Source: an uncultured Planctomycetaceae bacterium
GTDB taxonomy: Bacteria > Planctomycetota > Phycisphaerae > SM23-33
Reading direction: 5' to 3'
DNA: 64,000 nt
Assembly (NCBI GenBank): GCA_964401385.1
Contig: CAYNYF010000005.1
Location: 5,810 to 69,809 of the forward strand
Position 1 is the first letter of the stretch. The number at the start of each line of letters is the position of its first letter. The position numbers and the translations under genes are program-made. Below the pieces are notes generated by a model that did no database searches, was not told where the DNA came from, and saw nothing but the letters and a program-made list of their open reading frames with translations. Shown piece after piece: positions 29,250-50,538 of the stretch.

Positions 29250-29399
29250 GCTCAAGCTCGGTAAGCGCGAAGGTTTCCACCTGACAGCACGGCCGATTTT
29301 GTTTCGGCGCAGCGGCACGTGCCGCAGGCATACCGGCTCGTTTCAGATAGCAGAAGGTGGTTGAGGTCTGGCAAGGATCTTACGGCTCGGCTCAATTCA

Positions 29400-30371: not shown

Positions 30372-30619
30372 GCCAGCGAGCCGCGGGCTATGTCGCGGAG
30401 GCAGGGAGCCCCTTCAGATCCGTGCGGTACTTGAAAAAATGGACCGTCGTGGCATGTATCCCGGGCTTCGCGACCGCCCGGGCAGCGGCGGAGTAGCTCA
30501 ACGTGATGGGCAGGAGCGTCACTGGTTCCAGCGCAGACTCGGCACAGGCCACACCGCCCAAGTTGCCATGCACAGGACGCTGTCGGGTCAGTGTCGCGCC
30601 CCAAGGTGAGGAAAGGACA

Positions 30620-31255
30620 ATGGTAGGAAAGTATCTGCTCTCGACGGCTGTGGCCGGGCTGATCCTGCTGACACCACGCGCAGGCGCCTCGGCGACCATC
30701 AGCACGTTTGACTCCACCGATGAAGGCTGGACGATCACCGGCGACGCACAAGGTGCTTCAGTCTTGCCGACCTATCACGCGACGGGTGGAAACCCCGGCG
30801 GGTACGTCTCGGCCACCGATAATGTTCAAGGGGGCGTCTGGTACTTCAAGGCGGGCCCGCAGTTCCACGGCGACTTCTCAGCGGGTCACGGGACCGACCT
30901 GACGTTCGACCTGCGCCAAAGTGGCACGCACAGTCAGTTCGACGCGGTCGACGTCTACCTGCGGGGCGGCGGATTGGAACTGACCTACGACACGGCCAGC
31001 AATCCCGGCACTGTCTGGACCTCCTACAGCATTGAGCTGACCGAGACAGCCGGCTGGACGCTGGGCGCCGTTCCTCCTACGCAGGCCGAGATGCAGCAAG
31101 TGCTCGCCGACGTGACGGACTTGCAGATTCGTGGGGAATTCATCACGGGTAGCGACATAGGTGACCTGGACAACGTGGTGATGGTGCCCGTACCCGCTGC
31201 GCTGTCGCTGCTGGCGCTGGGCGCCCCGCTGCTGGGCCGGAAACGCCGAAGATAA
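30620..31255 (+). CDS. PEP-CTERM sorting-domain protein
   Basis: Start MVGKYLL with AGGAAAGGA RBS; signal peptide. C-terminal VPVPAALSLLALGAPLLGRKRRR. Confidence 0.7.
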   Translation: MVGKYLLSTAVAGLILLTPRAGASATISTFDSTDEGWTITGDAQGASVLPTYHATGGNPGGYVSATDNVQGGVWYFKAGPQFHGDFSAGHGTDLTFDLRQSGTHSQFDAVDVYLRGGGLELTYDTASNPGTVWTSYSIELTETAGWTLGAVPPTQAEMQQVLADVTDLQIRGEFITGSDIGDLDNVVMVPVPAALSLLALGAPLLGRKRRR

Positions 31256-32691: not shown

Positions 32692-34962
32692 ATGGGAAAG
32701 AGCTTGGCAGAGAAAGTGATCGCCCTGCGGTGGTGGATCGTCGGGGCGTGGGCGGCCGGCGCGATCGCGCTGGGGGTCTTTGTGGTCGCCCCCGACCCGG
32801 CCGCGAACGAATTGCAGACGTTCCTGCCGGTCGAGTCGGCCTCGGTGCGGGCGGCCGGCGCCCTGGCCAAGTCCTTTCCCCGTTCGGCCGGGCTGTCGCA
32901 GGCGGCAATCGTCATCGAGCGGCGCCGGGGCGGCCCTGCCGGCAGCGGGCGGAGCGCCCGGCTGACGGAGGCCGACCTGGCCGCGCTGAACGGCTTGGCC
33001 GGGCGGCTGCGGGAGAGCCTGCCCGAGGCCTTCGCCGGCGTGCTGCCCGCCGGGTCGCTGTCGGTTCGGGCGCCGGGCGACTTTCCGGCTATTCTGGGGG
33101 CGAATCCCTTCGTCAGCGGCGACGGGGCGTCGGCGGTGGCGGCGGTGCAGATCCCGGCCACCTTCGTCACGATCCGCGCCGCCCGCGTCGTCGAGTACGT
33201 CCGCCGCGCCGTGAGCGAATCCAGCTTCCCCACCGGGCTGGACGTGGCCGTGACCGGCTCGGCCGCCTTCGGGGCCGACTACGCCGCCGCCGCCAACAAG
33301 TCACATTCCGACACCGTCTGGGTGACGGTGGTGGCGGTGCTGGTGATCCTGCTGGTGGTCTACCGGGCGCCGCTGGCGGCGGGGACGGTGCTGGCGACGA
33401 TCGCCCTGGCCGCAACCGTCGCCCACTTCGGCCTGCAAATCGCTTCCCACCTGGGCCTGCACGTGGGCACGGCCGAGAAGATCTTCGTCTTTGTGCTGGT
33501 CTTCGGCGTGGGCGTCGACTACTCGCTGCTGTACCTGAGCCGGTTCCGGGAGTCGCTGGAGGTTTCGCCCGGCGCGCGGGCGGCGGCGGCGGTGGCGCTG
33601 TCGGCGACGGCGGCGACGATCCTGGCGTCGGCGAGCACGGACATCGCCGGGCTGGCAATGCTCTCGACGGCCCGGTTCAAAATATTCCAGACGGCGGGCA
33701 TGGCCGTGCCCATCGGGCTTGCGGTGGCCCTGGCGGCGGCGTTGACGCTGGTGCCGGCGGTCGTCGCCATCTGCCGGCACAGGCTATTCTGGCCGAGCCG
33801 GCGGACGGGCTTCATCGGCTCGCGGCGGATCTGGCCGGCCGTCGCCGGGGCCGTGGCCGCCCGGCCGGGCCTCGTCCTCATCGTCACGCTGGCCGCCCTG
33901 GCCGTTCCCGCCAGCCAGGCCTTCCGGCTGGACTTCGTCTACGACGCCCTGACCGGCCTGGGCAACGAGTACGGCTCGGTCCGCGGGCGGGAGATGACCC
34001 GCCGCCACTGGCCGGTCGGGCAGACCAGCCCGACGATCGTGCTCTTGCAGGCCCACTCGCCCTCGCCCGCAAAAGAGCTGCCCGCGGCCGCCGCCAGGCT
34101 CACCGTCGCCCTGGCGAAGCTCGACGGCGTCTCCGACGTCCGCTCGCTGGCTCAGCCCCTCGGCCGGGCGGGGGCAAACCCCGCCACCGGCATGCTCCTG
34201 GGGGCGGCGGGCGAGAAGGTGCGGGCCGAGTACCTCAGCCCCGACGGCCGGGCGACCCGGCTCGACGTGGTGCTGACGCACCCCGGCTTCTCCATCGCCG
34301 CCATGGACACGCTCCAGCGAATCCAGCAGGCCTGCCGGAGCACGCTTCCGGACGGGGTGGCCGCCGACTTCTCCGGCGTCACGGCCGAGATGGCCGACAT
34401 CCGGGCCGTCACGCAGCGAGATTTCTACCGCATTGCCGCCCTGGTGCTGACCGTGGTGTTCCTGATCGTGCTGCTGCTGCTGCGGGAGCCGATCGTTTCG
34501 GCCTTCATGGTCGGCTCGATGGTGCTCAGCTATCTGGCGGCCCTGGGCACGGCCTGGTGGTTCTTCACCGGCGTGTGCGGCTCGCCCGGGCTGGACTGGA
34601 AGGTCGAGGTCTTCCTGTTCGTGGTGATGCTGGCCGTGGGCGTGGACTACAACATTTTCCTGGCGGCGCGGCTGTCGGAGGAGTCGCGCCGGGCCGGCCC
34701 GCGCGAGGCCGCCCGGACGGCCATCATCCGCACCGGCGGCATCATCAGCTCGGCCGGGCTGATCATGGCCGCCGCCCTGGGCTCGCTGATGATCTCCAGC
34801 ATATCCCTGTTCGTGCAGTTGGGCTTTGCCTTTGCGGTGGGCATGCTGCTGGAGACCTTCCTCGTCCGCCCGCTGCTGCTGCCGTCCTTCGCCATCCTCA
34901 CCGGCCGACTCGGCCACCGGCGCAAGTCGGCATCAGAATCAACGGAACCTGCGGATCGCTGA
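32692..34962 (+). CDS. MMPL-family (RND superfamily) membrane transporter
   Basis: 756 aa with two TM bundles, each followed by the conserved VDYSLLYLSRFRE / VDYNIFLAARLSEE blocks. Confidence 0.85.
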   Translation: MGKSLAEKVIALRWWIVGAWAAGAIALGVFVVAPDPAANELQTFLPVESASVRAAGALAKSFPRSAGLSQAAIVIERRRGGPAGSGRSARLTEADLAALNGLAGRLRESLPEAFAGVLPAGSLSVRAPGDFPAILGANPFVSGDGASAVAAVQIPATFVTIRAARVVEYVRRAVSESSFPTGLDVAVTGSAAFGADYAAAANKSHSDTVWVTVVAVLVILLVVYRAPLAAGTVLATIALAATVAHFGLQIASHLGLHVGTAEKIFVFVLVFGVGVDYSLLYLSRFRESLEVSPGARAAAAVALSATAATILASASTDIAGLAMLSTARFKIFQTAGMAVPIGLAVALAAALTLVPAVVAICRHRLFWPSRRTGFIGSRRIWPAVAGAVAARPGLVLIVTLAALAVPASQAFRLDFVYDALTGLGNEYGSVRGREMTRRHWPVGQTSPTIVLLQAHSPSPAKELPAAAARLTVALAKLDGVSDVRSLAQPLGRAGANPATGMLLGAAGEKVRAEYLSPDGRATRLDVVLTHPGFSIAAMDTLQRIQQACRSTLPDGVAADFSGVTAEMADIRAVTQRDFYRIAALVLTVVFLIVLLLLREPIVSAFMVGSMVLSYLAALGTAWWFFTGVCGSPGLDWKVEVFLFVVMLAVGVDYNIFLAARLSEESRRAGPREAARTAIIRTGGIISSAGLIMAAALGSLMISSISLFVQLGFAFAVGMLLETFLVRPLLLPSFAILTGRLGHRRKSASESTEPADR

Positions 34963-35301: not shown

Positions 35302-35523
35302 CGCACTTCCCTTCCCTGCAAGAGCCGGGCGGCCAGCCGACCACGGCAAGGCCAGCCGCCCTGCTGTCCGACGCGCTCATCTCCGGGCACGCACACACGC
35401 CCGCCGGGATGTCACAACGTTAGCAGGAATGCGGCACGGACAACAGCGGCGTCGCGCCGGCGCTTCCAGGTGCATTTCCCGGCGGCGTTGACGCAGGCCC
35501 CGGGCGGCGATACAGTGGCGCAA

Positions 35524-36510
35524 ATGCGATACACGCCCATAGCTTTTCTCTGCTTGTTGCTGGCCCTGGGCTGTGAGGTCCAAGAGCCGCCGACGCCCTC
35601 CGCCGCGGCGGCCGAGCCGGCAAAGCCCGGGCCGGCAGCGCCGGTCGTGCCGGGCGGTAAGGTGATGGCGACCGTCAACGGCCGGCCGATCTACATGAAG
35701 GACCTCTACCAGCCGCTGGTCGAGGCCGACGGACTGCGGATGGCTGAAATGCTCATCGCCGACGCCATCGTCGCCCAGGAGGCCGCCCGCCGAAGCGTCA
35801 GCGCCACCGACTCCGACGTCGAGGCCGAGAACCAGCACTCTCTCAAGAACATCTCCCACCTGCTCAACGAAGCCCTCGGCCCCGACCAGCGCGAGCGGCT
35901 GCTGGATCAGTTGCTCGCCAGCCGCGGGCTCACCCGGTCGCTGTGGCAGGCCACCATGAGGCGCAACGCACTGCTGCGGAAGATGGTCGCCCCGCAGGTG
36001 GTGGTCAGCGAGGCCATGCTCAAGGTCGAATACGACCGCAGATACGGGGAAAAGGTCCAGATCAGCCACGTTCAGCTTCCCACCTTCGCAGAGGCCGAGA
36101 AGATCATCGCCCTGCTGAAGGCCGGGGAGGACTTCGCCGCCCTGGCCCGGAAGCACTCCACCAACACCGACACCGCCCGCGTGGACGGGATGATCTCGCC
36201 GGCGTTCACGCAGGCCAACGCCTCCGTGCCCAAGCCCATCCGCGACGCGGCCTTCGCCCTGAGAAGGCCGGGCGAGATCAGCGGCGTCGTCCAGGTGGGC
36301 AGCGAGTTCCACGTGCTCAAGCTCCGCCAGCGGATCCCCGCCCCGCCGGCCGATTTCGGGAAGGTCAAGGAACAGCTCCGCGGGGAGCTTCGAGAGCGCC
36401 TGACCGAGCGGCTTCAGCTTCAACTGCTGCGGGACCTGCGGACCAAGGCCGACGTGGACTACATCAACCCCGCGCTGCGGACGGCGGTGAAGCGGCAATC
36501 CCGCCCCTGA
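35524..36510 (+). CDS. SurA/PrsA-like peptidyl-prolyl isomerase (parvulin domain), lipoprotein
   Basis: Lipobox LLALGC; parvulin-type domain (HVQLPTFAEAEKIIALLKAGEDFAALARKHS ... GVVQVGSEFHVLKL). Confidence 0.75.
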   Translation: MRYTPIAFLCLLLALGCEVQEPPTPSAAAAEPAKPGPAAPVVPGGKVMATVNGRPIYMKDLYQPLVEADGLRMAEMLIADAIVAQEAARRSVSATDSDVEAENQHSLKNISHLLNEALGPDQRERLLDQLLASRGLTRSLWQATMRRNALLRKMVAPQVVVSEAMLKVEYDRRYGEKVQISHVQLPTFAEAEKIIALLKAGEDFAALARKHSTNTDTARVDGMISPAFTQANASVPKPIRDAAFALRRPGEISGVVQVGSEFHVLKLRQRIPAPPADFGKVKEQLRGELRERLTERLQLQLLRDLRTKADVDYINPALRTAVKRQSRP

Positions 36511-36547
36511 GCCCGCGGCGGCCGAGAAGGACAAGGAAGGGTGGCCG

Positions 36548-37849
36548 ATGCAGCCGTGCAACGTCTTGTACATTCACTCACACGACACCGGCCGATACGT
36601 CCGGCCGTACGGCTACGCCGTGCCCACACCGAACATCCAGGCCCTCGCCCGGCAGGGGGTGCTCTTCCGCAGCGCCTTCTGCTGCGCCCCCACCTGCTCG
36701 CCCAGCCGGGCGTCGCTGCTGACCGGGCAGTACCCCCACAGTAGCGGAATGCTGGGGCTGGCCCACCGCGGATTCGCCCTGAACGACTACGGCCGGCACA
36801 TCATCCACACGCTGGGGGAGGCCGGCTACCACTCGGTGCTGAGCGGCATCCAGCACGTGGCCCGCAATTCGGCCACCGTCGGCTACGATGAGGTGCTGCC
36901 CGCTCCGGGCTACAGCGAGGAGGCCGTCGCCCGGGACGCGGTGAGATGGCTCGCCGGCTCGCCGAAAAAGCCGTTCTTCCTGTCGGTGGGCTTCGGCGCG
37001 ACCCACCGCGTTTTCCCCCCGCCGGACCCGGCCGACGAGCCGCAGTACTGCCGGCCGCCGGCGCCGCTGCCGGACACGCCCGAGACCCGCTACGACTTCG
37101 CCTGCTACCGGAGCCGCGCGCGCATGCTGGACAAGGCCGTAGGAACCGTGCTGGCGGCGCTGGAGCGGGCGGGGCTGGCCGAAAGCACGCTGGTCATCTG
37201 CACCACCGACCACGGGGTGGCCTTTCCCGGCATGAAGTGCAACCTGACCGATCACGGCATCGGCGTAATGCTCATCCTCCGCGGGCCCGGCGGCTTTTCC
37301 GGCGGGAGGGCCTGCGAGGCGATGGTCTCCCACGTCGACCTGTTCCCGACGGTCTGCGAGCTGATCGGCGTCGACCCGCCCGGCTGGCTCCAGGGACGGT
37401 CGATGATGCCGCTGATCCGCGGTGAGGTCGAGCAGATCAACGAGGAGATCTTCGCCGAGGTCACCTATCACGCGGCGTACGAGCCGATGCGGGCGGTGCG
37501 GACGCAGCGGTGGAAATACATCCGCAGGTTCTCCGAGCGGCCGACGGGCGTGATGTGCAACTGCGACAAGAGCCCCAGCAAGGACGTGTGGCTGGCCCAC
37601 GGCTGGCGGGATCGGCCGGTCGCCGGCGAAGAGTTTTTCGACCTGGTTTTCGACCCCAACGAGGCGCACAACCTCGCCGCCGACCCGGCCGCGAAGGGCG
37701 CCCTCGACGACATGCGCCGGCGGCTGGAGAAATTCATGCGGGCCACCGACGATCCGCTGCTGAAGGGCCCCGTGCCCCCGCCGCCCGGGGCACGCGTCAA
37801 CCACCCGGACTGCCTCTCGCCGGGCGAGAAGCGGTTCATCGACACCTGA
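36548..37849 (+). CDS. Sulfatase (Cys-type, C-S-P-S-R), no signal peptide
   Basis: YIHSHDTGR and CCAPTCSPSRASLLTGQYPH formylglycine motif. AAGGAAGGG RBS. N-terminus lacks a signal peptide. Confidence 0.85.
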   Translation: MQPCNVLYIHSHDTGRYVRPYGYAVPTPNIQALARQGVLFRSAFCCAPTCSPSRASLLTGQYPHSSGMLGLAHRGFALNDYGRHIIHTLGEAGYHSVLSGIQHVARNSATVGYDEVLPAPGYSEEAVARDAVRWLAGSPKKPFFLSVGFGATHRVFPPPDPADEPQYCRPPAPLPDTPETRYDFACYRSRARMLDKAVGTVLAALERAGLAESTLVICTTDHGVAFPGMKCNLTDHGIGVMLILRGPGGFSGGRACEAMVSHVDLFPTVCELIGVDPPGWLQGRSMMPLIRGEVEQINEEIFAEVTYHAAYEPMRAVRTQRWKYIRRFSERPTGVMCNCDKSPSKDVWLAHGWRDRPVAGEEFFDLVFDPNEAHNLAADPAAKGALDDMRRRLEKFMRATDDPLLKGPVPPPPGARVNHPDCLSPGEKRFIDT

Positions 37850-37876
37850 ACCGCCCTGGCGAAACGAAAGGAAGAC

Positions 37877-39367
37877 ATGGCCAAGCCACCCAACATCCTG
37901 CTGTTCTGTGCCGACCAGCTCCGGGCGGACGCCCTCGGCTGCTACGGCAACAATGTCTGCCGGACGCCCAACCTGGACGCCCTGGCCACCGCCGGCGTGC
38001 TGTTTGAGAACACCTTCACCCCCAATCCGATCTGCGTGCCGGCCCGGGCGGTCATCACCACCGGCAACTACCCCCACGTCTGCACCGGCACCAAGAACAA
38101 CTCCGGCAGGATTCGCGACGATCAGCCCAAGCTGGCCGAGCACTTCGCCCGGTGCGGCTACGAGACCTACGCCTGCGGCAAGCTGCACTATGTGCCCTAT
38201 GCCCCGCCGGGCGAGCCGCGCCTGCTGCACGGCTACCAGCACTGCGACCTGACCGAGTCCGGGCGGCTGCAATGGCTCTACAACCCGGCCGGCGGGCAGC
38301 GCGGGCTGGAAGACTACATCGACTACCTCGCCGACGTCGGCTGGGCCGGCTACAGCCGCGCCCACGGTGCCGGCAACAACGACGTCCGCCCGTGCCCGTC
38401 GCCGCTGCCGGCCGAGCATCACGTCGACCACTGGGTGGCCGACCGAGCCATCGCCCGCCTGGGCGAGCACCTGGCCAACCGCGCCGACAAGCCCTTCCTG
38501 ATCTGGTGCAGCTTCCCCAAGCCGCACTCGCCGATGGACCCGCCCATCGAATACGCCACGATGTACGACCCGCGCGAGGTACCCCCGCCCGTCGGCGGCG
38601 AGTCGACGCTGGCCGACCGCAATCCGCTGCTGGAGGCCACCCGCATCACCCACGGCATGGACACGCTCAGCCCCGCCGCGCGGCAGGTTATCAAGGCATA
38701 CTACTACGCCGTGATCAGCCATCAGGACGCCCAGGTCGGGCGGGTGATGGCGGCGCTGGCGGCGGCCGGCGCGGCCGAGGACACCATCATCATGTTCATG
38801 GCCGACCACGGCGACCTGATGGGCGACTTCGGCGTTTACTTCAAGAGCAACTTCCTGGAAGGGGCGGTGCGGGTGCCGCTGCTGGTCAAGGCCCCCGGCC
38901 GGCCCGGCGGGCAACGGCGGAGCCAACTGGTCGGGCTCCAGGACGTGCTGCCGACGCTGGCGGCCCTGACCGATTGCCCGCTCGGCCGCGAGGTCCACGG
39001 GATCGACCTGACGAACGCGCTGTCCGACGCAGACGCCGACGTCCGCGAGTTCTACTACAGCCAGTGCATGGACGACCCGCGGCAGGCGGCCATGATCTGC
39101 GACGGCCGCTGGAAATACTGCTACGCCCAGCAGGGCCCCACCGAAGAGCTGTACGACCTGGCCGAGGACCCGCACGAGCTGGTCAACCTGGCCGCCCGCG
39201 GTGACGCCGAGAAGCTGCTCGAGCCCTGGCGCGAGCGGCTGATGGCCGAGGCCCGCCGCCTGGGCGATACCGCCCTGCTCGACGGGAAGAAGCTGAAGAC
39301 CGCGCCGCTGGATCGGGCCGCCATCGGCAAGCTGCCCATCAGCGGCATGGGCTGGCGCTGGTTCTGA
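37877..39367 (+). CDS. Sulfatase (Cys-type, C-V-P-A-R), no signal peptide
   Basis: ILLFCADQLRAD and CVPARAVITTGNYPH motifs; 496 aa. Confidence 0.85.
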   Translation: MAKPPNILLFCADQLRADALGCYGNNVCRTPNLDALATAGVLFENTFTPNPICVPARAVITTGNYPHVCTGTKNNSGRIRDDQPKLAEHFARCGYETYACGKLHYVPYAPPGEPRLLHGYQHCDLTESGRLQWLYNPAGGQRGLEDYIDYLADVGWAGYSRAHGAGNNDVRPCPSPLPAEHHVDHWVADRAIARLGEHLANRADKPFLIWCSFPKPHSPMDPPIEYATMYDPREVPPPVGGESTLADRNPLLEATRITHGMDTLSPAARQVIKAYYYAVISHQDAQVGRVMAALAAAGAAEDTIIMFMADHGDLMGDFGVYFKSNFLEGAVRVPLLVKAPGRPGGQRRSQLVGLQDVLPTLAALTDCPLGREVHGIDLTNALSDADADVREFYYSQCMDDPRQAAMICDGRWKYCYAQQGPTEELYDLAEDPHELVNLAARGDAEKLLEPWRERLMAEARRLGDTALLDGKKLKTAPLDRAAIGKLPISGMGWRWF

Positions 39368-39437
39368 CCGCCCGGTCGAGCCGCCCGCCGCCGCGCCCAA
39401 GAAACCCAAGTGATTTCGGGGCGGCGCTCGCTATCAT

Positions 39438-40787
39438 GTGGCCATGCTCCGGCGGCGTTTCGGGACATTCACGGGCGGGATCGACATTCCCGACGACAAG
39501 GAAGCCACCCTGGATGCACCCATCGCCCCGGTCGGGCGCCTGGAGAGGCTCCGCGTTCCGCTGGCGCCGGTCCCGGCCGAGCCGGCCCGCCCGGTCGTTC
39601 GGCCGGGCTATCGCGTCGCGGACGGGCAGAAGCTCGCCGAGGCGGACTCCCCGGAGCAGGTGGCGGTTTTCGCCCCGCTGGCGGGGCGGGTGGCGCGGTT
39701 TACCGAGGCGCTCGTTCCGGCCCATCCGAGCGGCTGGCGGGTCTCGCCGGCGATTGAGCTGACCGACCTGGGCCGCCCCGAGGGCATACGCCCGCTGCCG
39801 ACGACCTATCAGTGGCAGGCCGCCGACGACGGCTCCCTGCGGCTGCGAGTGGCCGAGGGCGGGCTGGTAACGTCCGGCTCGCCGCCGACGGCCCTGGCCG
39901 GCTGGGTGGAGGCCGCCCGGCGGGCGAAGGTCCACACCCTCATCGCCAACGTGATGGAGAACACGCCGTTCGTCACGGCCGATCACCGCCTCCTGGCCGA
40001 GCACGGCGGCGAGGTCATGCGCGGGCTGGTGATCCTCGCCCGGGCCATCGGCGTCACGGAGGCTATGCTGGCGGTCGACCTTCGCCGAACCGGCGCCTAC
40101 CAGGCCGCGGTCGGGCCGGCACACCTGCACGGCGTCGACGCCATCGCCCTGGCCCACAAGTATCCCATCGGGGCCGAGCCCATCCTGGTCAAGGTCCTCA
40201 CCCGGCGGGAGATCCCGCTGGGCCGGCGGGCCTTTTCGATCGGGGTGGCCACGACCGACGCGGCAACCTGCTGGGCGACGTACCAGTGGGTGGCGTGTGG
40301 CGTTCGGCCGACGGCGCGCGTGGTCACCGTCGCCGGGCCGAGGGTCGGCGCGCCGGGCAACCTGCTGGTGCCCTTCGGCGCCGACGCCGGCGAGGTGCTG
40401 GCGCTGGCCGAGGTTCGCGGCGACGAGCCGGCCATCCACGGGCCGGCCATGACCGGGCGCATGCTGCCACCCGAGGCGGTCGTCACCGGCCAGACCAACG
40501 CCCTGCTGGCACTGGAGCCCCCGCCGGCGGGCGTGCCCACGCCCTGTATCCGCTGCGGCTGGTGCACGGACAACTGCCCGGCGCGGCTGAACGTGGCCGC
40601 CCTAAACGACGACTTCGAGCTGGGCAGGACCGAGCGGGCGCGGCGGCGCGGGGCGCTGGCGTGCGTGGGCTGCGGCATATGCAGCTACGTCTGCCCGGCC
40701 CGGCTGCCCCTGGCCCGGCGGGTGGGGCTGCTGATGCAGGCCATCCGGGAAGAGCAAACGGCCGCCCCGGCCAGGGCGAGCCAATGA
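39438..40787 (+). CDS. RnfC-like electron-transport subunit (two 4Fe-4S ferredoxin motifs)
   Basis: N-terminal FTGGIDIPDDK (RnfC F.GGIHPPE.K-like). CIRCGWCTDNCP and CVGCGICSYVCP cluster motifs. Confidence 0.7.
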   Translation: MAMLRRRFGTFTGGIDIPDDKEATLDAPIAPVGRLERLRVPLAPVPAEPARPVVRPGYRVADGQKLAEADSPEQVAVFAPLAGRVARFTEALVPAHPSGWRVSPAIELTDLGRPEGIRPLPTTYQWQAADDGSLRLRVAEGGLVTSGSPPTALAGWVEAARRAKVHTLIANVMENTPFVTADHRLLAEHGGEVMRGLVILARAIGVTEAMLAVDLRRTGAYQAAVGPAHLHGVDAIALAHKYPIGAEPILVKVLTRREIPLGRRAFSIGVATTDAATCWATYQWVACGVRPTARVVTVAGPRVGAPGNLLVPFGADAGEVLALAEVRGDEPAIHGPAMTGRMLPPEAVVTGQTNALLALEPPPAGVPTPCIRCGWCTDNCPARLNVAALNDDFELGRTERARRRGALACVGCGICSYVCPARLPLARRVGLLMQAIREEQTAAPARASQ

Positions 40788-40788
40788 C

Positions 40789-42039
40789 GTGAACCACCGC
40801 CGCCGGCGCCGCAGCGCCCGCGGCCGGGAGATCCAAAGCGCTGGTATGGTGCAGACACGGCAAACGCTGAGCAGCCAGGCAGCCGCCCACGCCCCGTTCC
40901 TGCGGGCCCCCGAGGCCAGCCGCAGCATCTTCGTGGTGATGTTCGCGGCCGCGTGCGCCCCGCTGGGGGCCGGGGTGGTGCTGTTCGGCTGGCGGGCGCT
41001 GGCGGTGGCAGGCCTGAGCGTGGGCGGATGCGTGCTGACGGAGACCGCCTACTACCGCGTGACGCGGACGCCGGCGCTTCTGGGCCGCTCGCACGCGGCC
41101 CTGACGGGGCTGCTGCTGGCGCTGACGCTGCCGGCGTTCGTGCCCTGGTACGTGCCGTTGACGGGGGCGGTCTTCGCCATCATCGTCGGCAAGGCCATCT
41201 TCGGCGGCATGGGGCACTTTCTCTGGCAGCCGGCGCTGGTGGGGCGGCTGGCGGTGGGCGTGATCTTCGCCCCGCCGCTGCTGCCGATCGACCTGCTCAA
41301 CCCGCAGCAGTGGCCCGTGCTGGCGGTCAACCGCGTCATCCTCGGAGACGTGCGCCAGACCCGGTCCGTCCGCGCCGTCCGCGACTGGCAGCGGACGCCC
41401 GCCCCGCCCCAGGCTGACGCCTTCAAAACCCGGCGCCCGCGCGAGATGCTGCGCGAGCTGACCGGCCCGGGCGAGGCCCGCCCGGCGTCCATCGTGGACA
41501 CGCTGCGGCGGATGCCGCCGGTCCGCGATCTGCTGCTGGGCGCCCACGGCGGCGACATCGGCGAGACCTGTGTGCTGGTGATCCTGGTAGCCGGGCTGTA
41601 CCTGGTCTATCGCAACTACGTCCGGGGGTTCCTGCCGGGGATGTTCATCCTCGCGGCCGTCGTCACCGCCGCAATCGCGCCCGTCCGGGCGGGGCAAGGC
41701 CAGAGCTGGAAGTGGCTGCCCATCGCCTCCGAGGGGCTCGACGTGGGGTTCAGCTACGTCGCCTACCATCTCACATGCGGCGAGATCATGCTGGCGGCGT
41801 GGTTTCTCGCCACGGAGATGACCTCGCGCCCGGTGACGGCGCCGGCGCAGGCGATCTTCGCCGCCGGCTGCGGGGCAACGGCGGTGCTGCTTCGACTGTA
41901 TACGCCGCTGGCGATACCGGCCTACGCGGCCGTGCTCGGGTGGAATACTTTCACCCCCGTCCTGGACGTGATCCGCCCGCGGGTGCTGGGGCAGAAGCGC
42001 TTCTGGCAGCGGTGGCGCGAACCGCGCCCGGCAGAGTGA
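40789..42039 (+). CDS. RnfD/NqrB-like integral membrane subunit
   Basis: Polytopic. LLGAHGGDIGETCVLVILVAGLYLVY matches the RnfD block. Starts 2 nt after the RnfC-like stop. True start may be an internal Met. Confidence 0.7.
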   Translation: MNHRRRRRSARGREIQSAGMVQTRQTLSSQAAAHAPFLRAPEASRSIFVVMFAAACAPLGAGVVLFGWRALAVAGLSVGGCVLTETAYYRVTRTPALLGRSHAALTGLLLALTLPAFVPWYVPLTGAVFAIIVGKAIFGGMGHFLWQPALVGRLAVGVIFAPPLLPIDLLNPQQWPVLAVNRVILGDVRQTRSVRAVRDWQRTPAPPQADAFKTRRPREMLRELTGPGEARPASIVDTLRRMPPVRDLLLGAHGGDIGETCVLVILVAGLYLVYRNYVRGFLPGMFILAAVVTAAIAPVRAGQGQSWKWLPIASEGLDVGFSYVAYHLTCGEIMLAAWFLATEMTSRPVTAPAQAIFAAGCGATAVLLRLYTPLAIPAYAAVLGWNTFTPVLDVIRPRVLGQKRFWQRWREPRPAE

Positions 42040-42102: not shown

Positions 42103-42738
42103 TTACCGACTCCGGCCGCGGAAAGCCCGCCTCCGCCTGCGAGTCACCGCCAGGGCCCCCATGCCCAGAAGCACCATCACGGCCGGGGCGGGAACCGGAG
42201 TGCCCTCGAAGATGAGCGTCGCCTGCGTCACGTCGCCGGTTGCGTGCTCCACCAGCTCATAGGGTTCCTCGGGATACAAAAAAAGGGGAGCATTGATGCT
42301 CCAGCTCACCTCGCCCCATCCCTGTTTCACGCGCTCCAACTCGTAGGCGGCAATCTGGTCATAGACCGCCTCGCCGTCGAACGCCCCGCTGCAATCGAGG
42401 GCCACCACGTCCACGCCCGAGATTCCGCCCTCCGGATACAGCACCGAAAAGAAGCCGGGGGCGGTCACGTTGTCCACACCCGTCCCAAAGGGCAAACCAC
42501 GCGCCCACAGGCCTCCGTAGAATGTCCCGGCGATTCGGATTCGAACCTCCTGGACTTCCAGAAAGGCCGTGCCGCAGTCATAGGCGCACTTCTTCCCCGA
42601 CGAGCCGGCGGAAGCGTCGGTGGTGTAATGTCCCAGCAGACCATCCAGCGGCAGTTCGAACGTGTCCGTCCATCCCGCCGATGCCGGCACCAGCAGACCC
42701 ATCAGGCAGGCAATGGAAGCACATCCCTTCGCGTACAT
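42103..42738 (-). CDS. PEP-CTERM sorting-domain protein
   Basis: Start MYAKGCASIACLMGLLVPASA with AAGGAGG RBS. C-terminal TPVPAPAVMVLLGMGALAVTRRRRRAF. Confidence 0.7.
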   Translation of the reverse strand: MYAKGCASIACLMGLLVPASAGWTDTFELPLDGLLGHYTTDASAGSSGKKCAYDCGTAFLEVQEVRIRIAGTFYGGLWARGLPFGTGVDNVTAPGFFSVLYPEGGISGVDVVALDCSGAFDGEAVYDQIAAYELERVKQGWGEVSWSINAPLFLYPEEPYELVEHATGDVTQATLIFEGTPVPAPAVMVLLGMGALAVTRRRRRAFRGRSR

Positions 42739-42992
42739 TCGGTCCTCCTTTCCGCCATGCAAGGACAGAGGCATTCTCCTGGCTTGTTGGACGTACCCTC
42801 GGCGTGGCTCGGCTGAGGCCGATGGCCATGCCGCACGAAGAGGAACGAATCAAGACTTCCGACAAAGTCCCGGCTGAACTGATCCCCCAGGCCAATGTAA
42901 TTCTACGGCCGCCGACCGCCGGCGTCAAGGGCCCATCTCGCGGGAAGGAAGCTCGGGGGGTGGCCAACCCAGGCGTGAATGCCCGGCCTCCG

Positions 42993-43721
42993 CTACCTTG
43001 CCCGCAGCAGGCGGGCGAAGGCCAGGGCGGCTGCGACGCCCGGCCACAGGGCCCAGGCCCAGATCGGCGCGGGATGCCAGGAGGCGCTCCTGGCGGCGGC
43101 GACCGAATACGCACAGGTCGCCGGCCCGGCCGAGAAGAGCCAATCGGGCGGGACGCCCCTGCCGGTCACCTCGGTCAGCACGTAATAGGTCACGGGCATG
43201 CCAACGGCAATGAGGGCGGCGGCCAGGGCGGCGGCGGTCGTGGTGGCGGCGCGGCCTTGGGCCACCCACAAGCTTAGCCCCCACGCCGCCATCGCCACGC
43301 CCGTCAGGTACAGCAGGCCGCGGACGACGTCCCCGGCCGTGGCGTCCGACAGCCACGCGGCGGCCACGTAAAGCGGCGCCGAGGCCACCAGCAGCATCAC
43401 GTACTCACCGGCCGCGGGAAAAATCGACGCCAGCGCGCCCTCGTCGCTCGCCGCGGACCGCCCGGCCGCGGCGGCCCTGCGCCCGAGAACCAGCGGGCAG
43501 ATCAACATCAGCAGGCCCGCCTGGGCCGCCAGCAGCACCTGCAAGGCCGGCGGGCTGGCAAAGCCCCCGCCAAAGTCTGGTTGCAGGAAGCTCTCCGGCA
43601 GCGACCCCACCGCCAGCGCCGCCACCGAGACGGCCAGGAAGACCGCCCCGGCCGGATGCCAGAACTGCACGACCTTCCCGCCGGCGGGAACATCGCCGCC
43701 CTGATCAATGGATGCTGACAT
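42993..43721 (-). CDS. Hypothetical polytopic membrane protein
   Basis: 242 aa with about 6 hydrophobic helices. Immediately downstream of ftsQ, overlapping it by about 17 bp. Confidence 0.45.
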   Translation of the reverse strand: MSASIDQGGDVPAGGKVVQFWHPAGAVFLAVSVAALAVGSLPESFLQPDFGGGFASPPALQVLLAAQAGLLMLICPLVLGRRAAAAGRSAASDEGALASIFPAAGEYVMLLVASAPLYVAAAWLSDATAGDVVRGLLYLTGVAMAAWGLSLWVAQGRAATTTAAALAAALIAVGMPVTYYVLTEVTGRGVPPDWLFSAGPATCAYSVAAARSASWHPAPIWAWALWPGVAAALAFARLLRAR

Positions 43722-44646
43722 GGAGTTTTTCGAAGCGGAGATCGATCCAGTCCTTCACGCCGGCCAGCTTGCCGCCGTTGGAGGCGACGTAGGCGTCCAG
43801 GTTGGCCAGTTTGGCCTCCGGGGCCAGGCAGTAGTCCAGCCCGTCCTCGGCCGGAAAACGCCCGAAGAGAACCCGCGTCCGCCGCGACTGGCCGAGCTGG
43901 GCGTAGAACTGGAGGTGCGGGTCCATCGGGCTGATGCGCCCGTTGTGATTGCGGACGTCGATGACGCTGATCTGACCTTGCCACGCCCGGCCCTTCAGCA
44001 GGCTGAGCAGGCGCAGGCCCTTATCCAACTCCGGGGCGTCCCACTTCTGCCCCGGCCGCGGCGGTAGCGTGCCCACGCCGTCGATCTTGACGAAGGCGTC
44101 CTGGCGAACCTGATTGGCCCGCAGCGGCAGCACCACGCCGCCGGCGTCGACCACGTGAAATTCGCCCGGCCGATCCTCGACCGCCACCAGCGCCGCCGGC
44201 CGGCGGAACTCGGCCTCGATCACGACCGTGCCGTCATGGTGCTTGCGGACGCAGCGTACCTTCGCGATCCAGGGGTGCTCGGCGGCGGCATCGTAAACGT
44301 CCTTCGCCAAGCTCTCGTCGAAGACGCTGCGCCCGGACACTTTGGCCTGAACGCGTGACAGGACACTGCGGACAGCGTACGGCGGCAGGTCCATCGGGCG
44401 CTCGGCCAGCCGCACGCGCGCGGACTTTCCGGCGTACTCCGGCGAGGCCAGCACACTGCTCCGCATGCCCCACAGCGCCAGCGCCGCCAGCGCCGCCACC
44501 GTCAACACGGCCGAAGCCTTGACGGCCTTGGCCTTGTGCGGCCAGGGCGGGTGCGACGGCTTGACCTGGGCTTTCGCCCGATCCTTCTTCTTTTTCTTCC
44601 TTCGCAGCACCAGCGGTAACCTCCCTGTTCCGGCCGGCACAGGCAA
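43705..44646 (-). CDS. ftsQ: Cell division protein FtsQ-like (POTRA domain)
   Basis: Basic cytoplasmic N-terminus, single TM, periplasmic POTRA-like domain. Sits directly downstream of ddl in the dcw cluster. Confidence 0.7.
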   Translation of the reverse strand: MPVPAGTGRLPLVLRRKKKKKDRAKAQVKPSHPPWPHKAKAVKASAVLTVAALAALALWGMRSSVLASPEYAGKSARVRLAERPMDLPPYAVRSVLSRVQAKVSGRSVFDESLAKDVYDAAAEHPWIAKVRCVRKHHDGTVVIEAEFRRPAALVAVEDRPGEFHVVDAGGVVLPLRANQVRQDAFVKIDGVGTLPPRPGQKWDAPELDKGLRLLSLLKGRAWQGQISVIDVRNHNGRISPMDPHLQFYAQLGQSRRTRVLFGRFPAEDGLDYCLAPEAKLANLDAYVASNGGKLAGVKDWIDLRFEKLHVSIH

Positions 44647-44658
44647 CCCGTGCCCGGC

Positions 44659-45645
44659 TCACGCCCCACCGGGCAACCTGTTCAGGGCCAACTGCACGAT
44701 CCGGTCGCAGAGCTGCTCGAAGCTGACGTTCGCGGCCGCGGCCGCCTTCGGCAGCAGCGAGTGAGACGTAAAGCCGGGAATCGTGTTGACCTCCAGCACG
44801 TGGGCGACGCCGGCCGGGGTAAGGATGAAGTCCACCCGGCTGAAGTCCCGACAGCCCAATGCCTTATGGGCAGTGACCGCGGCCGCCCGGAGGTGCTCGA
44901 CCACGGCCGGCGGCAACTGCGTGTCCACGATGTACTCCGTGGCGTCGTCCTCGTACTTGGCGACGTAGTCGTAGAACTCCCGCGCGGGGCGAATCTCGAC
45001 CACCGGCAGCGGCCTGTCGGCCAAGATGCCGACGGTCATCTCCCGCCCCTCGATGAACGCCTCGACCATTGCCCTGCCGTACCGGGCCAGCAGCCCTTCC
45101 AGGGCCGCGTCGCGGCTGGCGTCGTCGCGGGCGATGATGACGTCCACGCTGGAGCCGCCATCGACGGGCTTGAGCACGCACGGCGGCGGCACGCCCGCCA
45201 GCAGCCCACCCCAGTCCGGCGGCGAAAGCCCCCCGTCGACCACCACCCAATCCGGCGTCGCCAGCCCCGCCCGGCGGAACAGCCGCTTGCTGGCGTCCTT
45301 GTCCATCGCCAGCTCCGAGGCGGACGGGCCGGAGCCCACGTACCTCAGGCCCCGCTGCTCGCACAGCCGCTGGACCTGGCCGTTCTCGCCGAAGGCCCCG
45401 TGCACGGCGATGAACACCATCTCGATGCCCTCGCGGTCCAGGGCGGCGGTGTCTTCGGGGCCGACGTCGGCGGCGGTGACCCGGTGCCCGCAGCGCCGCA
45501 GCGCCTCGGCCACGGCTCGGCCGGACAGCAACGATACCTCGCGCTCGCTGCCGGGCCCACCCATGAGCACGGTGATGTCCAGCGGGCGGGTTCTACGGCC
45601 CGCCACGTCGATGGCGCCTTGGGCTGCGAGGGGCTCTGCCGGCAT
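44659..45645 (-). CDS. ddl: D-alanine--D-alanine ligase
   Basis: VLMGGPGSEREVSLLSG ... ATP-grasp motifs. Confidence 0.9.
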   Translation of the reverse strand: MPAEPLAAQGAIDVAGRRTRPLDITVLMGGPGSEREVSLLSGRAVAEALRRCGHRVTAADVGPEDTAALDREGIEMVFIAVHGAFGENGQVQRLCEQRGLRYVGSGPSASELAMDKDASKRLFRRAGLATPDWVVVDGGLSPPDWGGLLAGVPPPCVLKPVDGGSSVDVIIARDDASRDAALEGLLARYGRAMVEAFIEGREMTVGILADRPLPVVEIRPAREFYDYVAKYEDDATEYIVDTQLPPAVVEHLRAAAVTAHKALGCRDFSRVDFILTPAGVAHVLEVNTIPGFTSHSLLPKAAAAANVSFEQLCDRIVQLALNRLPGGA

Positions 45646-45648
45646 GGC

Positions 45649-46533
45649 TCACCAGACCTCCACTTCCAGTTCCAGATACACTTCCCAGCGCTTGTAGACG
45701 TCCTCGCGGATGATGTTGATCAGTTTCAGCACGTCGGAAGCCCGCGTCCCCGGGTCAGCGATGATGAAGTTGGCGTGCCTGTCCGAGACCTGTGCCCCGC
45801 CGGTGCGGCGGCCCTTCAGGCCGGACTTGTCGATCAGGGCCCCGGCCGACAGGCCCCGGGGGTTCTTGAAGATGCAGCCGGCGCTGCGGACCCACAGCGG
45901 CTGGGTGTTCTTCTTGTAGATCCAGATACGTTTGACCTGGTTGAGGATCCTGCGCGGGTCGTCGGGCATCAGCCGAAACTGGGCGCCGAGGATGACCTTG
46001 GCGGAGATGTTGGTGTGGCGGTAGCCGAAGACCAGCTCCCCGCGGAGGCGGGTGAAGCCGACGCCGTCGCTGTCCATCAGGTCGACCGACTCGACCATGT
46101 TGCCGATGTCGCCGAAGGCCCCGCCGGCGTTCATCCGTACCGCCCCGCCGATGCTGCCGGGGATGCCGGCCAGGCATTCCATTCCGCTCATCCCCTCCCG
46201 CACCGAGCGCAGCACTATCCGGTGCAGCTCGGCCGCCGCCCCCGCCTCCACGCCGTCCTTAGTGAAGCGCACCCGCCCGAACGTCTCGCCGGCCAGACGC
46301 ACCACCGCCCCGCGTACGCCGGAATCGTCGATCAGAAGGTTCGCCCCGCCGCCCAGGATGCGCACGGGAACCTCGTTCTCCCGGCAGCGCCGGAGCACCT
46401 CCGCCAACTGCTCCGGCGTGGTCGGCTCGATGAAGTACTGCGCCGGCCCGCCGATGCGCATCCACGTATACGAGGCCAGCGGCACTTCCGTCTTAACGAT
46501 CTGTTCCAAGCCAGCGAACAATGTCATCCGCAA
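45649..46533 (-). CDS. murB: UDP-N-acetylenolpyruvoylglucosamine reductase
   Basis: FAD-binding RIGGPAQYF...ILGGGANLL and C-terminal MurB domain. Confidence 0.9.
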   Translation of the reverse strand: MRMTLFAGLEQIVKTEVPLASYTWMRIGGPAQYFIEPTTPEQLAEVLRRCRENEVPVRILGGGANLLIDDSGVRGAVVRLAGETFGRVRFTKDGVEAGAAAELHRIVLRSVREGMSGMECLAGIPGSIGGAVRMNAGGAFGDIGNMVESVDLMDSDGVGFTRLRGELVFGYRHTNISAKVILGAQFRLMPDDPRRILNQVKRIWIYKKNTQPLWVRSAGCIFKNPRGLSAGALIDKSGLKGRRTGGAQVSDRHANFIIADPGTRASDVLKLINIIREDVYKRWEVYLELEVEVW

Positions 46534-47935
46534 CTTCCCAGATGTTGCCCGCCCCCATGGTTACCACCAGGTCGCCCGGGGCCAGAGAGGCCTTCAGGTG
46601 TCGGCTGATCGACTCAAAGCTGTTCCGGTAGACCGCGTCGCCGCCGTTGAGGCGAATCTGAGCGACCAGGTCTTCGGCGGAGATGTATTCCTTTTCGCGC
46701 TCGCTGTCGCGGACGAAGTAGATGTCCGGGACGATGACGCGGTCGGCGGCGCCGAAGCTGCGGGCGAAGTCCTTCAGCAAGAAGCGCGTGCGCGAGTGCT
46801 GGTGCGGCTGGAAGACGCACCAGATCCGCTGCGGCAGGAAGAACTCGCGAATGGCCCGCAGCGTCACCTGGATCTCGGTGGGGTGGTGGGCGTAGTCGTC
46901 GACCACGGTGACGCCGCCGAGGGCGGCCTTGATGGTGAGCCGGCGATACACGCCCTCGAAGCCGGCGACGGCCTTCGCGATCTGGGCGGGGCTGAGCCCG
47001 GCCTGATGCAGCAGCCCGGCCGCCGCCAGGGCATTATAGACTTGGTGCAGCCCGGGAAGCTGAAGCGCCATCCTGCAAAAGCGCTTTCCGCCCAGCAGCA
47101 CGTCGAACCGGAAGCGGCCGCGGTCGGCCCTCAAGTTGCTCGCCCGCCACAGCGGGTCGTCCTCCACGCCGAACGTCTGCACCTCGCAGGTTGCCTCGCG
47201 CACCGCCTGCATGACGTTGCGGTCGTCGCCGTTGGCCATCAGCAGCCCGCGGGCGGGCAGCTTGGACGCGAACGCCCGGAAGGCCTCCACGATGGCGGCA
47301 ATGTCGGCATAGCAGTCCAGGTGGTCCTCCTCGATGTTCAGAATGGCCGCGTACATCGCGGAGAGGTTCAGGAAGGAGCGGTCGAACTCGCAGGCCTCGG
47401 CGACGAAATGCCGGCCCGCGCCGACGCCGCTGGGCCCGCCGAGCTGGGCGACGGTCGCCCCGATGATGAAGGACGGGTCCATGCCCGCCGACGCCAGGGC
47501 GTAGGCGACCAGGGCCGTGGTGGTGGACTTTCCGTGGGTGCCGGCGACGGCGATGCCGCAGCGGTCGCCCATCAGCCGCCCCAACATCTGGCTATACTTG
47601 ATCACCTCCGCCCCGCGCTGCCGAGCGGCCAGCAGCTCCGGGTTGGCCTCGTGAATCGCGGCCGAGTACACCACCAGGTCCAGCTTCTCCGGCAGGTTCT
47701 CCGCCCGCTGGCCCACGGTCACGCCGGCCCCGTGAGCGGCCAAGTCCTGTAGCGCGGCCGAGTCGGCCTGGTCGGAGCCGCTGACGGTCGCCCCGCGGGC
47801 CAGAAGCATCCTCGCCAGGGCGCGCATGCCCGATCCGCCCATGCCGATCAGGTGCACCCGCCGGCGGAGATACTTGGCCTCGGCCACCCCGGCGGCGGCG
47901 AATGTCCTCCGCTCAGTTTCCATCGGTCTCAGCAT
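46493..47935 (-). CDS. murC: UDP-N-acetylmuramate--L-alanine ligase
   Basis: HLIGMGGSGM and VAGTHGKSTTT P-loop; Mur ligase C-terminal domain. Confidence 0.9.
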   Translation of the reverse strand: MLRPMETERRTFAAAGVAEAKYLRRRVHLIGMGGSGMRALARMLLARGATVSGSDQADSAALQDLAAHGAGVTVGQRAENLPEKLDLVVYSAAIHEANPELLAARQRGAEVIKYSQMLGRLMGDRCGIAVAGTHGKSTTTALVAYALASAGMDPSFIIGATVAQLGGPSGVGAGRHFVAEACEFDRSFLNLSAMYAAILNIEEDHLDCYADIAAIVEAFRAFASKLPARGLLMANGDDRNVMQAVREATCEVQTFGVEDDPLWRASNLRADRGRFRFDVLLGGKRFCRMALQLPGLHQVYNALAAAGLLHQAGLSPAQIAKAVAGFEGVYRRLTIKAALGGVTVVDDYAHHPTEIQVTLRAIREFFLPQRIWCVFQPHQHSRTRFLLKDFARSFGAADRVIVPDIYFVRDSEREKEYISAEDLVAQIRLNGGDAVYRNSFESISRHLKASLAPGDLVVTMGAGNIWEVADDIVRWLGTDR

Positions 47936-48000
47936 AGTAGTTACTCACACACGTCCCTGTCAAACTCGCCCAACCGCCACTCTCGTTGCAGCTTTCGGCC

Positions 48001-48060
48001 TCCCGCTTTCAGTTTTCAGCTTTCAGCTTTGCCCTTCGCTCTTCGTCTTTTTCAAATCGC
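48001..48060. repeat. Dispersed intergenic repeat: GCTGAAA-heptad element (copy 1, inverted orientation) in the murG/murC gap
   Basis: gctttcagttttcagctttcagctttg is the reverse complement of the 53131-53160 copy. Similarity extends about 45 bp: gacgaagagcgaagggcaaagctgaaagctgaaaactgaaagc vs cacgcgagaaggagacaaagctgaaagctgaaaactgaaagc. Confidence 0.6.
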
Positions 48061-48088
48061 GCGGACTTTGACAAAGCCCGCGTAGTAC

Positions 48089-49219: not shown

Positions 49220-49297
49220 GCACCACCACGGGCGGCCGCCAACGGAATCGCCAGGCGCAGGCCGGATTCCGGCGGGCGGCGCGACATTTGTGCTCCG

Positions 49298-50464: not shown

Positions 50465-50508
50465 GGCGTCCTCCAGAACGCGAATTCGAGCAAATCACGA
50501 GAAGAAAC

Positions 50509-50538
50509 AGAACGCGAACTCGCGCGAATTCGCGTTCT
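50509..50538 (-). promoter_or_regulatory. Hairpin (10-bp stem agaacgcgaa/ttcgcgttct) overlapping the mraY stop, followed by a U-rich tract on the transcript
   Basis: Inverted repeat read from the sequence. A direct partial repeat cgcgaattcg lies nearby at about 50478-50490. Confidence 0.35.

Follow-up and report, generated by a model that had tools for sequence, protein, structure and literature searches.

In the Rnf complex, electrons follow a wire of cofactors that runs from ferredoxin through RnfB, the [2Fe-2S] cluster of RnfA/E and the flavin mononucleotide (FMN) of RnfG to the covalently bound FMN of RnfD (PMC12174285, PMC11889175, PMC9588780). From there, the wire continues over the riboflavin of RnfD, the two [4Fe-4S] clusters of RnfC and the FMN of RnfC to NAD+ (PMC12174285, PMC11889175, PMC9588780). 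Contact between RnfC and RnfD is made by the N- and C-terminal arms of RnfD (PMC9588780). The subject of this analysis is a pair of adjacent genes for an RnfC-like and an RnfD-like protein, located on a stretch of 64,000 nucleotides (the window) of contig CAYNYF010000005.1 from an uncultured Planctomycetaceae bacterium. The pair forms the 3' end of a block of five genes at positions 35524-42039, in which the initial annotation had seen a possible novel membrane redox module linked to two sulfatases.

Two further groups of described systems are related to Rnf. In the sodium-translocating NADH:quinone oxidoreductase (Na+-NQR or Nqr), NqrA is devoid of all cofactors, and the riboflavin of NqrB reduces quinone directly (PMC12174285, PMC4014512). 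The "NQR/RNF-like" flavinylation-associated systems are reduced in composition, with an RnfD/NqrB-like membrane protein that lacks A/E partners, and a single one-way electron path has been proposed for them (Meheust et al. 2021, PMC8238504). Their RnfD-like domain is fused to an NAD-binding domain of the NqrF type, and their genes lie in clusters with ApbE and FMN-binding domains (PMC8238504). A two-subunit RnfCD module was not found in the searchable literature, which was examined for RnfC and RnfD in Planctomycetes or Phycisphaerae and for Rnf together with sulfatases; the matches to "RnfCD" are prefixes of rnfCDGEAB.

The two genes represent a genuine two-gene module that is conserved in Planctomycetota and occurs mostly in metagenome-assembled genomes (MAGs) labelled Phycisphaerae. 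On balance, their products are best read as an iron-sulfur module of the membrane that consists of two subunits, works autonomously and is derived from the RnfC-RnfD part of Rnf. As judged from the sequences, the middle of the Rnf wire is kept, comprising the two predicted clusters and a modified pocket of the riboflavin type, together with a motif of the N-terminal arm. What is gone are the two ends of the wire, the predicted FMN/NADH site of RnfC and the site of the covalent FMN of RnfD.

Distribution and conservation of the pair

Forty related Planctomycetota loci (41 with the window) were compared for the pair; 43 canonical Rnf loci, drawn from a wide range of other phyla, served as controls. 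Genes in the related loci were called with a simple heuristic based on the G+C content of third codon positions (GC3). The contexts of clade 1, the first of the two clades discussed here, were collected by look-ups by encoded protein and by one scan of a one-genome-per-species collection. The MAGs are not labelled consistently as to taxon; one contig appears as both Planctomycetaceae and Phycisphaerae.

According to tblastn, 38 of the 40 related loci share with the window an RnfC-like gene that lies immediately 5' of the RnfD-like gene. The exceptions are L024, where the contig ends, and L037. In L037 (L037:168-4515), two tandem oxidoreductases of the Gfo/Idh/MocA type with twin-arginine translocation (Tat) signals stand directly 5' of the RnfD-like gene, in place of the RnfC-like gene. 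Similar Tat-exported oxidoreductases are found a few genes from the pair in eight other loci.

No homologues of RsxG, RsxE, RsxA or RsxB were found by tblastn within ±10 kb of the pair in the 40 related loci. In the canonical loci used for comparison, by contrast, G, E and A (and in some cases B) accompany C and D in every case in which the contig is long enough. Escherichia coli RsxA/B/G/E queries gave no match in the 64-kb window (tblastn), and the Pfam annotation of its remaining open reading frames (ORFs) revealed no Rnf or Nqr gene and no gene for a formylglycine-generating enzyme (FGE) or an anaerobic sulfatase-maturating enzyme (anSME). The statement in the initial annotation that an RnfC-like protein with two 4Fe-4S motifs and an RnfD-like protein are the only Rnf-type products encoded in the window therefore stands.

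A homology search with the RnfD-like protein returned hundreds of relatives with 50-73% identity; wherever a source was named, it was Planctomycetota or Phycisphaerae. The family is monophyletic with respect to 42 canonical RnfD proteins in 30 of 30 neighbour-joining bootstraps, so that the phylogeny proposed earlier as a check places it apart from canonical RnfD. When 1.8 billion representatives at 50% identity were searched with a profile, about 60-70 clusters lacking the FMN-accepting threonine of RnfD were recovered before canonical RnfD takes over. Clade 2 is more distant (36-38% identity to the RnfD-like protein of the window). Here, the pair is kept, its genes overlap by at least 4 bp, and the neighbours are wholly different in each of the three loci.

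The two proteins also occur as single chains. Five RnfC-like::RnfD-like fusions of 790-856 amino acids (aa) were found (P0356, P0359, P0361, P0371 and P0378), which stem from clade 1, clade 2 and a third lineage that is divergent. Their N-terminal half carries both cluster motifs, and their C-terminal half is without the threonine. Another fusion, P0475 (775 aa), combines an RnfC part with a degenerate flavin loop (TGDTPFP, CVESEP) and an otherwise canonical RnfD part, which has the N, the D and the threonine-containing ITASTTPL. It may represent an independent or an intermediate case of the loss of the RnfC flavin site.

The RnfC-like subunit

The RnfC-like protein comprises 449 aa when read from GTG 39438 and 447 aa when read from ATG 39444, the likelier start according to a comparison with homologues. 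Its domain order in Pfam is that of RnfC, with an RnfC_N barrel-sandwich domain, a NuoF-like domain and a C-terminal 2x[4Fe-4S] ferredoxin domain that contains two CxxCxxCxxxCP motifs. The AlphaFold2 model has a predicted local distance difference test (pLDDT) score of 90.8, and its top matches in the PDB are RnfC chains (template modelling (TM) score 0.84-0.87), followed by NqrA. With 228.9 bits, the protein remains under the cutoff of 245.95 for the RnfC model TIGR01945; a weak match to PrdC is also seen in NCBIfam. Many members of the family bear the NCBI names "4Fe-4S dicluster domain-containing protein" or "hypothetical protein".

Two motifs of RnfC are replaced in the window protein: GLGGAGFPT by TSGSPPT, and NAAECEPY by NVMENTPF. 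All 39 canonical RnfC proteins have the loop G-[LM]-GGA-x-FP-[TS], which none of 120 family members has, and the same distribution applies to the cysteine of the ECEP motif N-x-x-E-C-E-P (39/39 versus 0/120). Going by the homologous site of NuoF, the lost glycine-rich loop and ECEP motif would be the site that holds FMN and NADH in RnfC. The eight cysteines of both [4Fe-4S] motifs are kept in 117 of the 120 members, inside the family-specific signature CIRCGWCTDHCPAR.

The RnfD-like subunit

The RnfD-like protein has the polytopic membrane fold of PF03116 (198 bits), and the 10-helix fold of RnfD is retained. Its AlphaFold2 model (pLDDT 88.2) was best matched in Foldseek by RnfD from three organisms (TMt 0.78-0.86), then by NqrB and then by a urea transporter. 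Public databases label the protein "RnfABCDGE type electron transport complex subunit D"; its score against the RnfD model TIGR01946 is 125.8 bits, under the cutoff of 207.05.

The protein was aligned to E. coli RsxD, to Rnf chains from the PDB and to canonical controls. In Acetobacterium woodii RnfD, FMN is bound covalently to T156 within D-x-x-[ST]-x-A-T-P, and the riboflavin ligands N123 and D249 are essential according to mutagenesis (PMC11889175). The column of the FMN-carrying threonine, a residue of the periplasmic side, holds T or S in 42 of 42 canonical RnfD proteins and mostly R or P in 230 family members. Fifteen of these 230 have T or S at this position, in contexts such as LPTPR, which depart from the ApbE substrate motif D-x-x-[ST]-x-A-[TS]-P. 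The window protein reads DAFKTRRP at the site of the motif, with R in the threonine column. The search for a conserved FMN-attachment threonine, which had been suggested for this locus, thus ended with its absence.

The riboflavin ligands are changed as well: where A. woodii RnfD has N123 and D249, the window protein has Q147 and E343. Canonical RnfD has N and D in these columns without exception (42/42), clade 1 has Q (117/119) and E (118/119), and clade 2 has Q or H in the first and mostly D in the second. The FMN-attachment region measures about 85 residues versus about 37 in A. woodii RnfD, and the approximately 50 extra residues are modelled confidently by AlphaFold as a small subdomain of strands and helices. 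At the N-terminus, the arm motif APFLRAPE is conserved in the RnfD-like family. Four cysteines regarded as family-specific (C56, C81, C261 and C361) were considered as a new metal site, and this idea was dropped since C361 and C81 are matched in RnfD of A. woodii or Clostridium tetanomorphum in the alignments with PDB chains.

Proposed function

The loss of the flavin/NADH loop of RnfC and of the FMN threonine of RnfD implies that the pair is unable to perform ferredoxin:NAD+ oxidoreduction. Most likely, a cytoplasmic one-electron partner, which may be a protein of the ferredoxin or flavodoxin type or an enzyme, exchanges single electrons with the RnfC-like subunit. The electrons would travel via the two [4Fe-4S] clusters between this partner and a site in the membrane subunit. 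The far end of the path may be a site for a ligand or for quinone in that half of the RnfD-like protein which faces the cytoplasm, and by analogy such a route would resemble the riboflavin-to-quinone end of NqrB. Ion pumping by the pair would not be expected.

Several points weigh against an electron-transferring module of this kind. The loss of cofactor sites also fits a role outside redox chemistry, and the donor, the acceptor and the RnfD-like cofactor of the proposed reaction are putative. The N-terminal amphipathic helices that belong to the quinone site of NqrB-type proteins are not evident in the RnfD-like protein, the N-terminus of the family being short and variable. In L037, an RnfD-like gene occurs without an adjacent RnfC-like gene. 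Finally, the search for rnfGEAB and nqr genes covered the loci, and such genes may be present elsewhere in the genomes.

Both Rnf and Nqr are regarded as redox pumps that require all six subunits. The family described here shows that the C-D sub-complex has had an evolutionary history of its own. The pair can be regarded as a natural minimal system for electron transfer between the clusters of RnfC and the membrane pocket of RnfD. It would also be a living parallel to the loss of cofactors from RnfC to NqrA that has been proposed for the origin of Na+-NQR. There is a practical consequence for annotation, since the label of an Rnf subunit D on these planctomycetal genes invites wrong reconstructions, for example the entry "Rnf present" for MAGs of Phycisphaerae. 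Members of the family can be told from true Rnf by the lack of the GGAxFP loop and of the flavinylation threonine and by the motifs GHFLWQPA and TEMTSRP.

Alternative explanations

The main alternative to electron transfer is a redox-gated channel. The RnfD-like protein would then be a channel or transporter that is gated by the iron-sulfur subunit, the latter acting as a cytoplasmic sensor of redox state or oxygen. The RnfD/NqrB fold is related to that of urea and ammonium transporters (review PMC12174285), and a urea transporter is the third-best fold match of the RnfD-like protein. The loss of both flavin sites, the polar Q/E pair in the membrane core and the frequent presence of a transporter of the MMPL family and an exported chaperone beside the pair point in the same direction. 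Against such a role, A. woodii RnfD has been reported to be dry and without an ion path (PMC11889175), and no transporter-type substrate motif is known for the RnfD-like family. Moreover, the eight strictly conserved cluster cysteines, which form a wire aimed at the membrane subunit, fit electron transfer more simply. A channel function is considered unlikely.

Alternatively, the pair could supply subunits C and D of an ordinary Rnf complex whose remaining genes (G, E, A and B) are located at other sites of the genome; in planctomycetes, the genes of a pathway are often scattered. Both proteins are clearly derived from Rnf, with rnfC and rnfD as the best NCBIfam models and with matching folds, and the search for the missing subunits was confined to the loci. 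Such a split Rnf is nevertheless very improbable. The FMN-accepting threonine, which RnfD needs to take over electrons from RnfG, is absent across the family, so that the pair would receive none from the flavin of RnfG and would be no piece of a divided complex. The flavin/NADH loop of RnfC is equally absent across the family, both proteins score under the NCBIfam cutoffs, none of the 40 loci has G, E, A or B nearby, and fusions of C and D exist. In addition, Planctomycetota with a true Rnf have been described as having an rnfABCDEG cluster or an rnf complex (PMC12628686, PMC4897734).

A third explanation connects the membrane redox module with cytoplasmic sulfatases, either through sulfoester metabolism or by a supply of electrons for formylglycine maturation. 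Both sulfatases encoded upstream of the pair are type I (S1) enzymes, with PF00884 scores far above the cutoff of 25 bits (Table 1) and with the motifs CSPSR and CVPAR. In either protein, the PF00884 domain begins at residue 5. Only 19 (sulfatase 1) and 9 (sulfatase 2) in-frame codons lie between the upstream stop and the ATG, too few for a Sec or Tat leader. The cryptic export signals that might have overturned the initial annotation can thus be set aside, and its view of two sulfatases with CxPxR motifs and without signal peptides is confirmed; both are probably cytoplasmic, as far as their sequences tell. Leaderless sulfatases are ordinary in planctomycetes. The closest solved structures are S1_8 sulfatases and N-sulfoglucosamine sulfohydrolase for sulfatase 1, and choline sulfatases for sulfatase 2. 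The latter align from their own residues 2-8, so that the leaderless state is ordinary for the subfamily of sulfatase 2.

In favour of a connection, the window and the related loci L007 and L089 have a sulfatase directly 5' of the RnfC-like gene, the gaps being short and the plus strand free of terminator-like sites. Leaving the window aside, six related loci have a sulfatase within 10 kb of the pair, five have an anSME-like radical-SAM gene at such a distance, and in L087 an FGE gene is 6 kb away. The adjacency is, however, limited to the closest relatives. L007 and L089 possess one gene each, of the sulfatase 2 type (the L007 orthologue gives 739 bits in tblastn), so that number and type vary in comparison with the two genes of the window. 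Sulfatase 1 occurs at the pair only in the window and is missing from L007, L089 and L001. The last of these (72% identity) carries an ATP-binding cassette (ABC) transporter and a DUF1854 protein where the window has sulfatases, and L002 and L048 have an unrelated sulfatase downstream of the pair. The adjacency is also missing from most of clade 1 and from every clade 2 locus examined, and the majority of related loci are without any sulfatase.

Planctomycete genomes hold many dozens of sulfatases, with about 110 in the 7 Mb of Rhodopirellula baltica. From such genome counts, a sulfatase would be expected by chance in roughly a quarter of 20-kb neighbourhoods, which is about the frequency observed. 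The sulfatases are lineage-specific neighbours and no conserved partners of the RnfC/RnfD-like pair. Of the module postulated at the outset, the two-gene core has proved real (38 of 40 loci, fusions, monophyly), and the link to the sulfatases has not. The same division is seen when the block of five genes is followed across loci: the pair recurs, the gene of the peptidyl-prolyl isomerase (PPIase) accompanies it in about half of them, and the sulfatases do so in the closest relatives alone. For the suggested link to intracellular sulfoester metabolism no supporting evidence was obtained, and a functional tie between the pair and sulfatases is held to be highly unlikely.

Although the motifs that define the function of Rnf have been lost, it is scarcely credible that the pair is a functionless, decaying remnant of an Rnf operon, given hundreds of clusters at 90% identity and about 60-70 at 50% identity with intact ORFs and many invariant residues, the conservation of cluster cysteines and gene order, the structured family-specific insertion and a codon usage typical of coding sequence (GC3 0.91).

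Gene organisation of the locus

Genes of the window were identified by a GC3-based ORF screen combined with Pfam and NCBIfam scans. The features at and around the pair are compiled in Table 1.

Table 1. Genes of the five-gene block that ends with the RnfC/RnfD-like pair, and their immediate neighbours.
Feature	Position in the window	Strand	Evidence
MMPL-family resistance-nodulation-division (RND) transporter	32692-34962	+	PF03176, 326 bits
Exported parvulin-type PPIase (PrsA/SurA-like lipoprotein)	35524-36510	+	Rotamase_2/Rotamase, weak SurA_N_3
Leaderless S1 sulfatase 1 (CSPSR)	36548-37849	+	PF00884, 131.5 bits
Leaderless S1 sulfatase 2 (CVPAR), choline-sulfatase/arylsulfatase-like	37877-39367	+	PF00884, 135.9 bits
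RnfC-like cytoplasmic iron-sulfur subunit	39438-40787	+	RnfC_N, Complex1_51K, 4Fe-4S dicluster (Fer4) domains
RnfD-like polytopic membrane subunit, 416 aa	40789-42039	+	PF03116, 198 bits
Secreted protein, convergent gene	42103-42849	-	ORF, GC3 0.74; no Pfam match
Second convergent gene	42993-43754	-	ORF downstream of RnfD-like

The five genes from the PPIase to the RnfD-like protein are co-directional and tightly spaced, as had been noted before, with successive gaps of 37, 27, 70 and 1 nt. Their GC3 values range from 0.82 to 0.93 in a window of about 69% G+C. The PPIase has a lipoprotein-like signal at its N-terminus (LLLALGC), and a promoter-like site is located just 5' of its gene (35488-35516). 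No terminator-like sites were found on the plus strand in the intergenic gaps of the block, and the genes of the PPIase and the two sulfatases may be co-transcribed with the pair. Downstream, the two convergent genes of the minus strand, beyond which a dcw cluster follows on the same strand, imply that the block stops at 42039. Scans of the window for Rfam families and tRNAs gave no matches.

Some other features of the window may be recorded here. The product of the first convergent gene has a signal-like N-terminal segment, and its C-terminus, VPAPAVMVLLGMGALAVTRRRRR, resembles by eye an anchor of the PEP-CTERM type; the GC3 of this ORF is below that of its neighbours. The dcw cluster (43705-59647, minus strand) is complete, comprising mraZ, rsmH, a gene for a LysM protein, ftsI, murE, murF, mraY, ftsW, murG, murC, murB, ddl and a gene for an FtsQ-like protein. 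murD is not located between mraY and ftsW, and the ftsQ-like gene is followed not by ftsA and ftsZ but by genes for a membrane protein and a secreted protein. The same cluster adjoins the pair in L001, L036 and L089. At 29319-31255 on the plus strand, an RCC1-repeat protein is encoded next to a protein with a match to Laminin_B (domain IV), both domains being better known from eukaryotes. Two tandem class-III aminotransferases at 20601-23436 (minus strand) stand beside an aldolase of the DeoC/LacD family and a weakly URO-D-like protein and may be part of a small catabolic cluster.

Recurrent neighbours

Neighbours of the pair were counted in clade 1 by clustering of ORFs, with the window included among the loci. 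The PPIase is the commonest 5' neighbour, with a homologue in about 19 of the 40 related loci according to tblastn and in 16 according to ORF clustering, which makes about 17-20 loci once the window is counted; it is not part of the core module. Other recurrent neighbours are QueE (17 loci), QueD (13), a GT39-like membrane protein (12), the Tat-exported Gfo/Idh/MocA oxidoreductase (9) and an aminotransferase (7). The MMPL transporter lies 5' of the pair in about 10 of the 41 loci, the window being counted. In one subclade, an anSME-like radical SAM/SPASM protein with a C-terminal tail of the SEC-C type (CPCGSGxKxKxCCG) is encoded within 10 kb of the pair (L010, L011, L018, L021 and L029); its gene adjoins that of a conserved small membrane protein.

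None of the recurrent neighbours of clade 1 was found in the clade 2 loci examined. Being limited to one clade, they are read as inherited gene order and not as functional coupling, and synteny was rejected as a guide to the function of the pair for this reason.

Comparison with known systems

The resemblance to Rnf extends over the folds of RnfC and RnfD, the domain order, the two [4Fe-4S] motifs, the arm motif of RnfD and the order of the genes, C preceding D. Likewise, rnfC and rnfD are the nearest NCBIfam models of the two proteins, and the corresponding subunits are their best structure matches. Unlike Rnf, the pair has no G, E, A or B nearby, and a six-subunit cluster is found neither in the 64-kb window nor within ±10 kb of the pair in the 40 loci. 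The RnfC-like protein differs from its Rnf counterpart in lacking the FMN/NADH loop and ECEP, and the RnfD-like protein in lacking the flavinylated threonine, in having Q/E for N/D and in its insertion of about 50 residues.

With Na+-NQR, the pair shares a further trait: NqrA, too, is a homologue of RnfC that has lost the flavin site and yet stays docked on a homologue of RnfD. However, NqrA has lost the iron-sulfur clusters as well, whereas the RnfC-like protein strictly keeps the motifs of both. NqrB possesses a covalent FMN (T236) and extra N-terminal quinone helices, neither of which is seen in the RnfD-like protein. Scores against the Nqr models are low, with 17-25 bits for nqrA (cutoffs 321-505), 54-60 bits for nqrB (cutoffs 350-414) and 42 bits for NF002181 (cutoff 792). 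Genes for nqrC-F were not found near the pair by tblastn or Pfam annotation.

The NQR/RNF-like systems resemble the pair in being reduced, single-path systems that are built on a protein of the RnfD type. Here, the cytoplasmic partner is instead a flavin-less RnfC-like iron-sulfur protein, and the flavinylation motif is absent. PF00175 has no match in the RnfD-like protein, and no ApbE or FMN_bind genes occur in the contexts examined. The arrangement of RnfC_N, Complex1_51K and 2x[4Fe-4S] is also known outside Rnf, from two soluble proteins, the cobalamin reductase PduS and PrdC of proline reductase. PduS, which shares the architecture of the RnfC-like protein, binds flavin, and neither PduS nor PrdC is known to have a membrane protein of the RnfD type as its partner.

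In the features tested, the family falls outside the definitions of Rnf, Na+-NQR and the NQR/RNF-like systems. A further-reaching proposal, which is offered tentatively, is that the pair constitutes a third functional branch of the Rnf/Nqr superfamily that had not been recognised before, namely a self-sufficient iron-sulfur membrane oxidoreductase of two subunits, or sometimes of a single chain, that operates without covalent flavin, NADH site or RnfA/E/G/B. In Phycisphaerae, such an enzyme might link a cytoplasmic pool of low-potential one-electron carriers to menaquinone or, via the family-specific periplasmic insertion, to a periplasmic partner.

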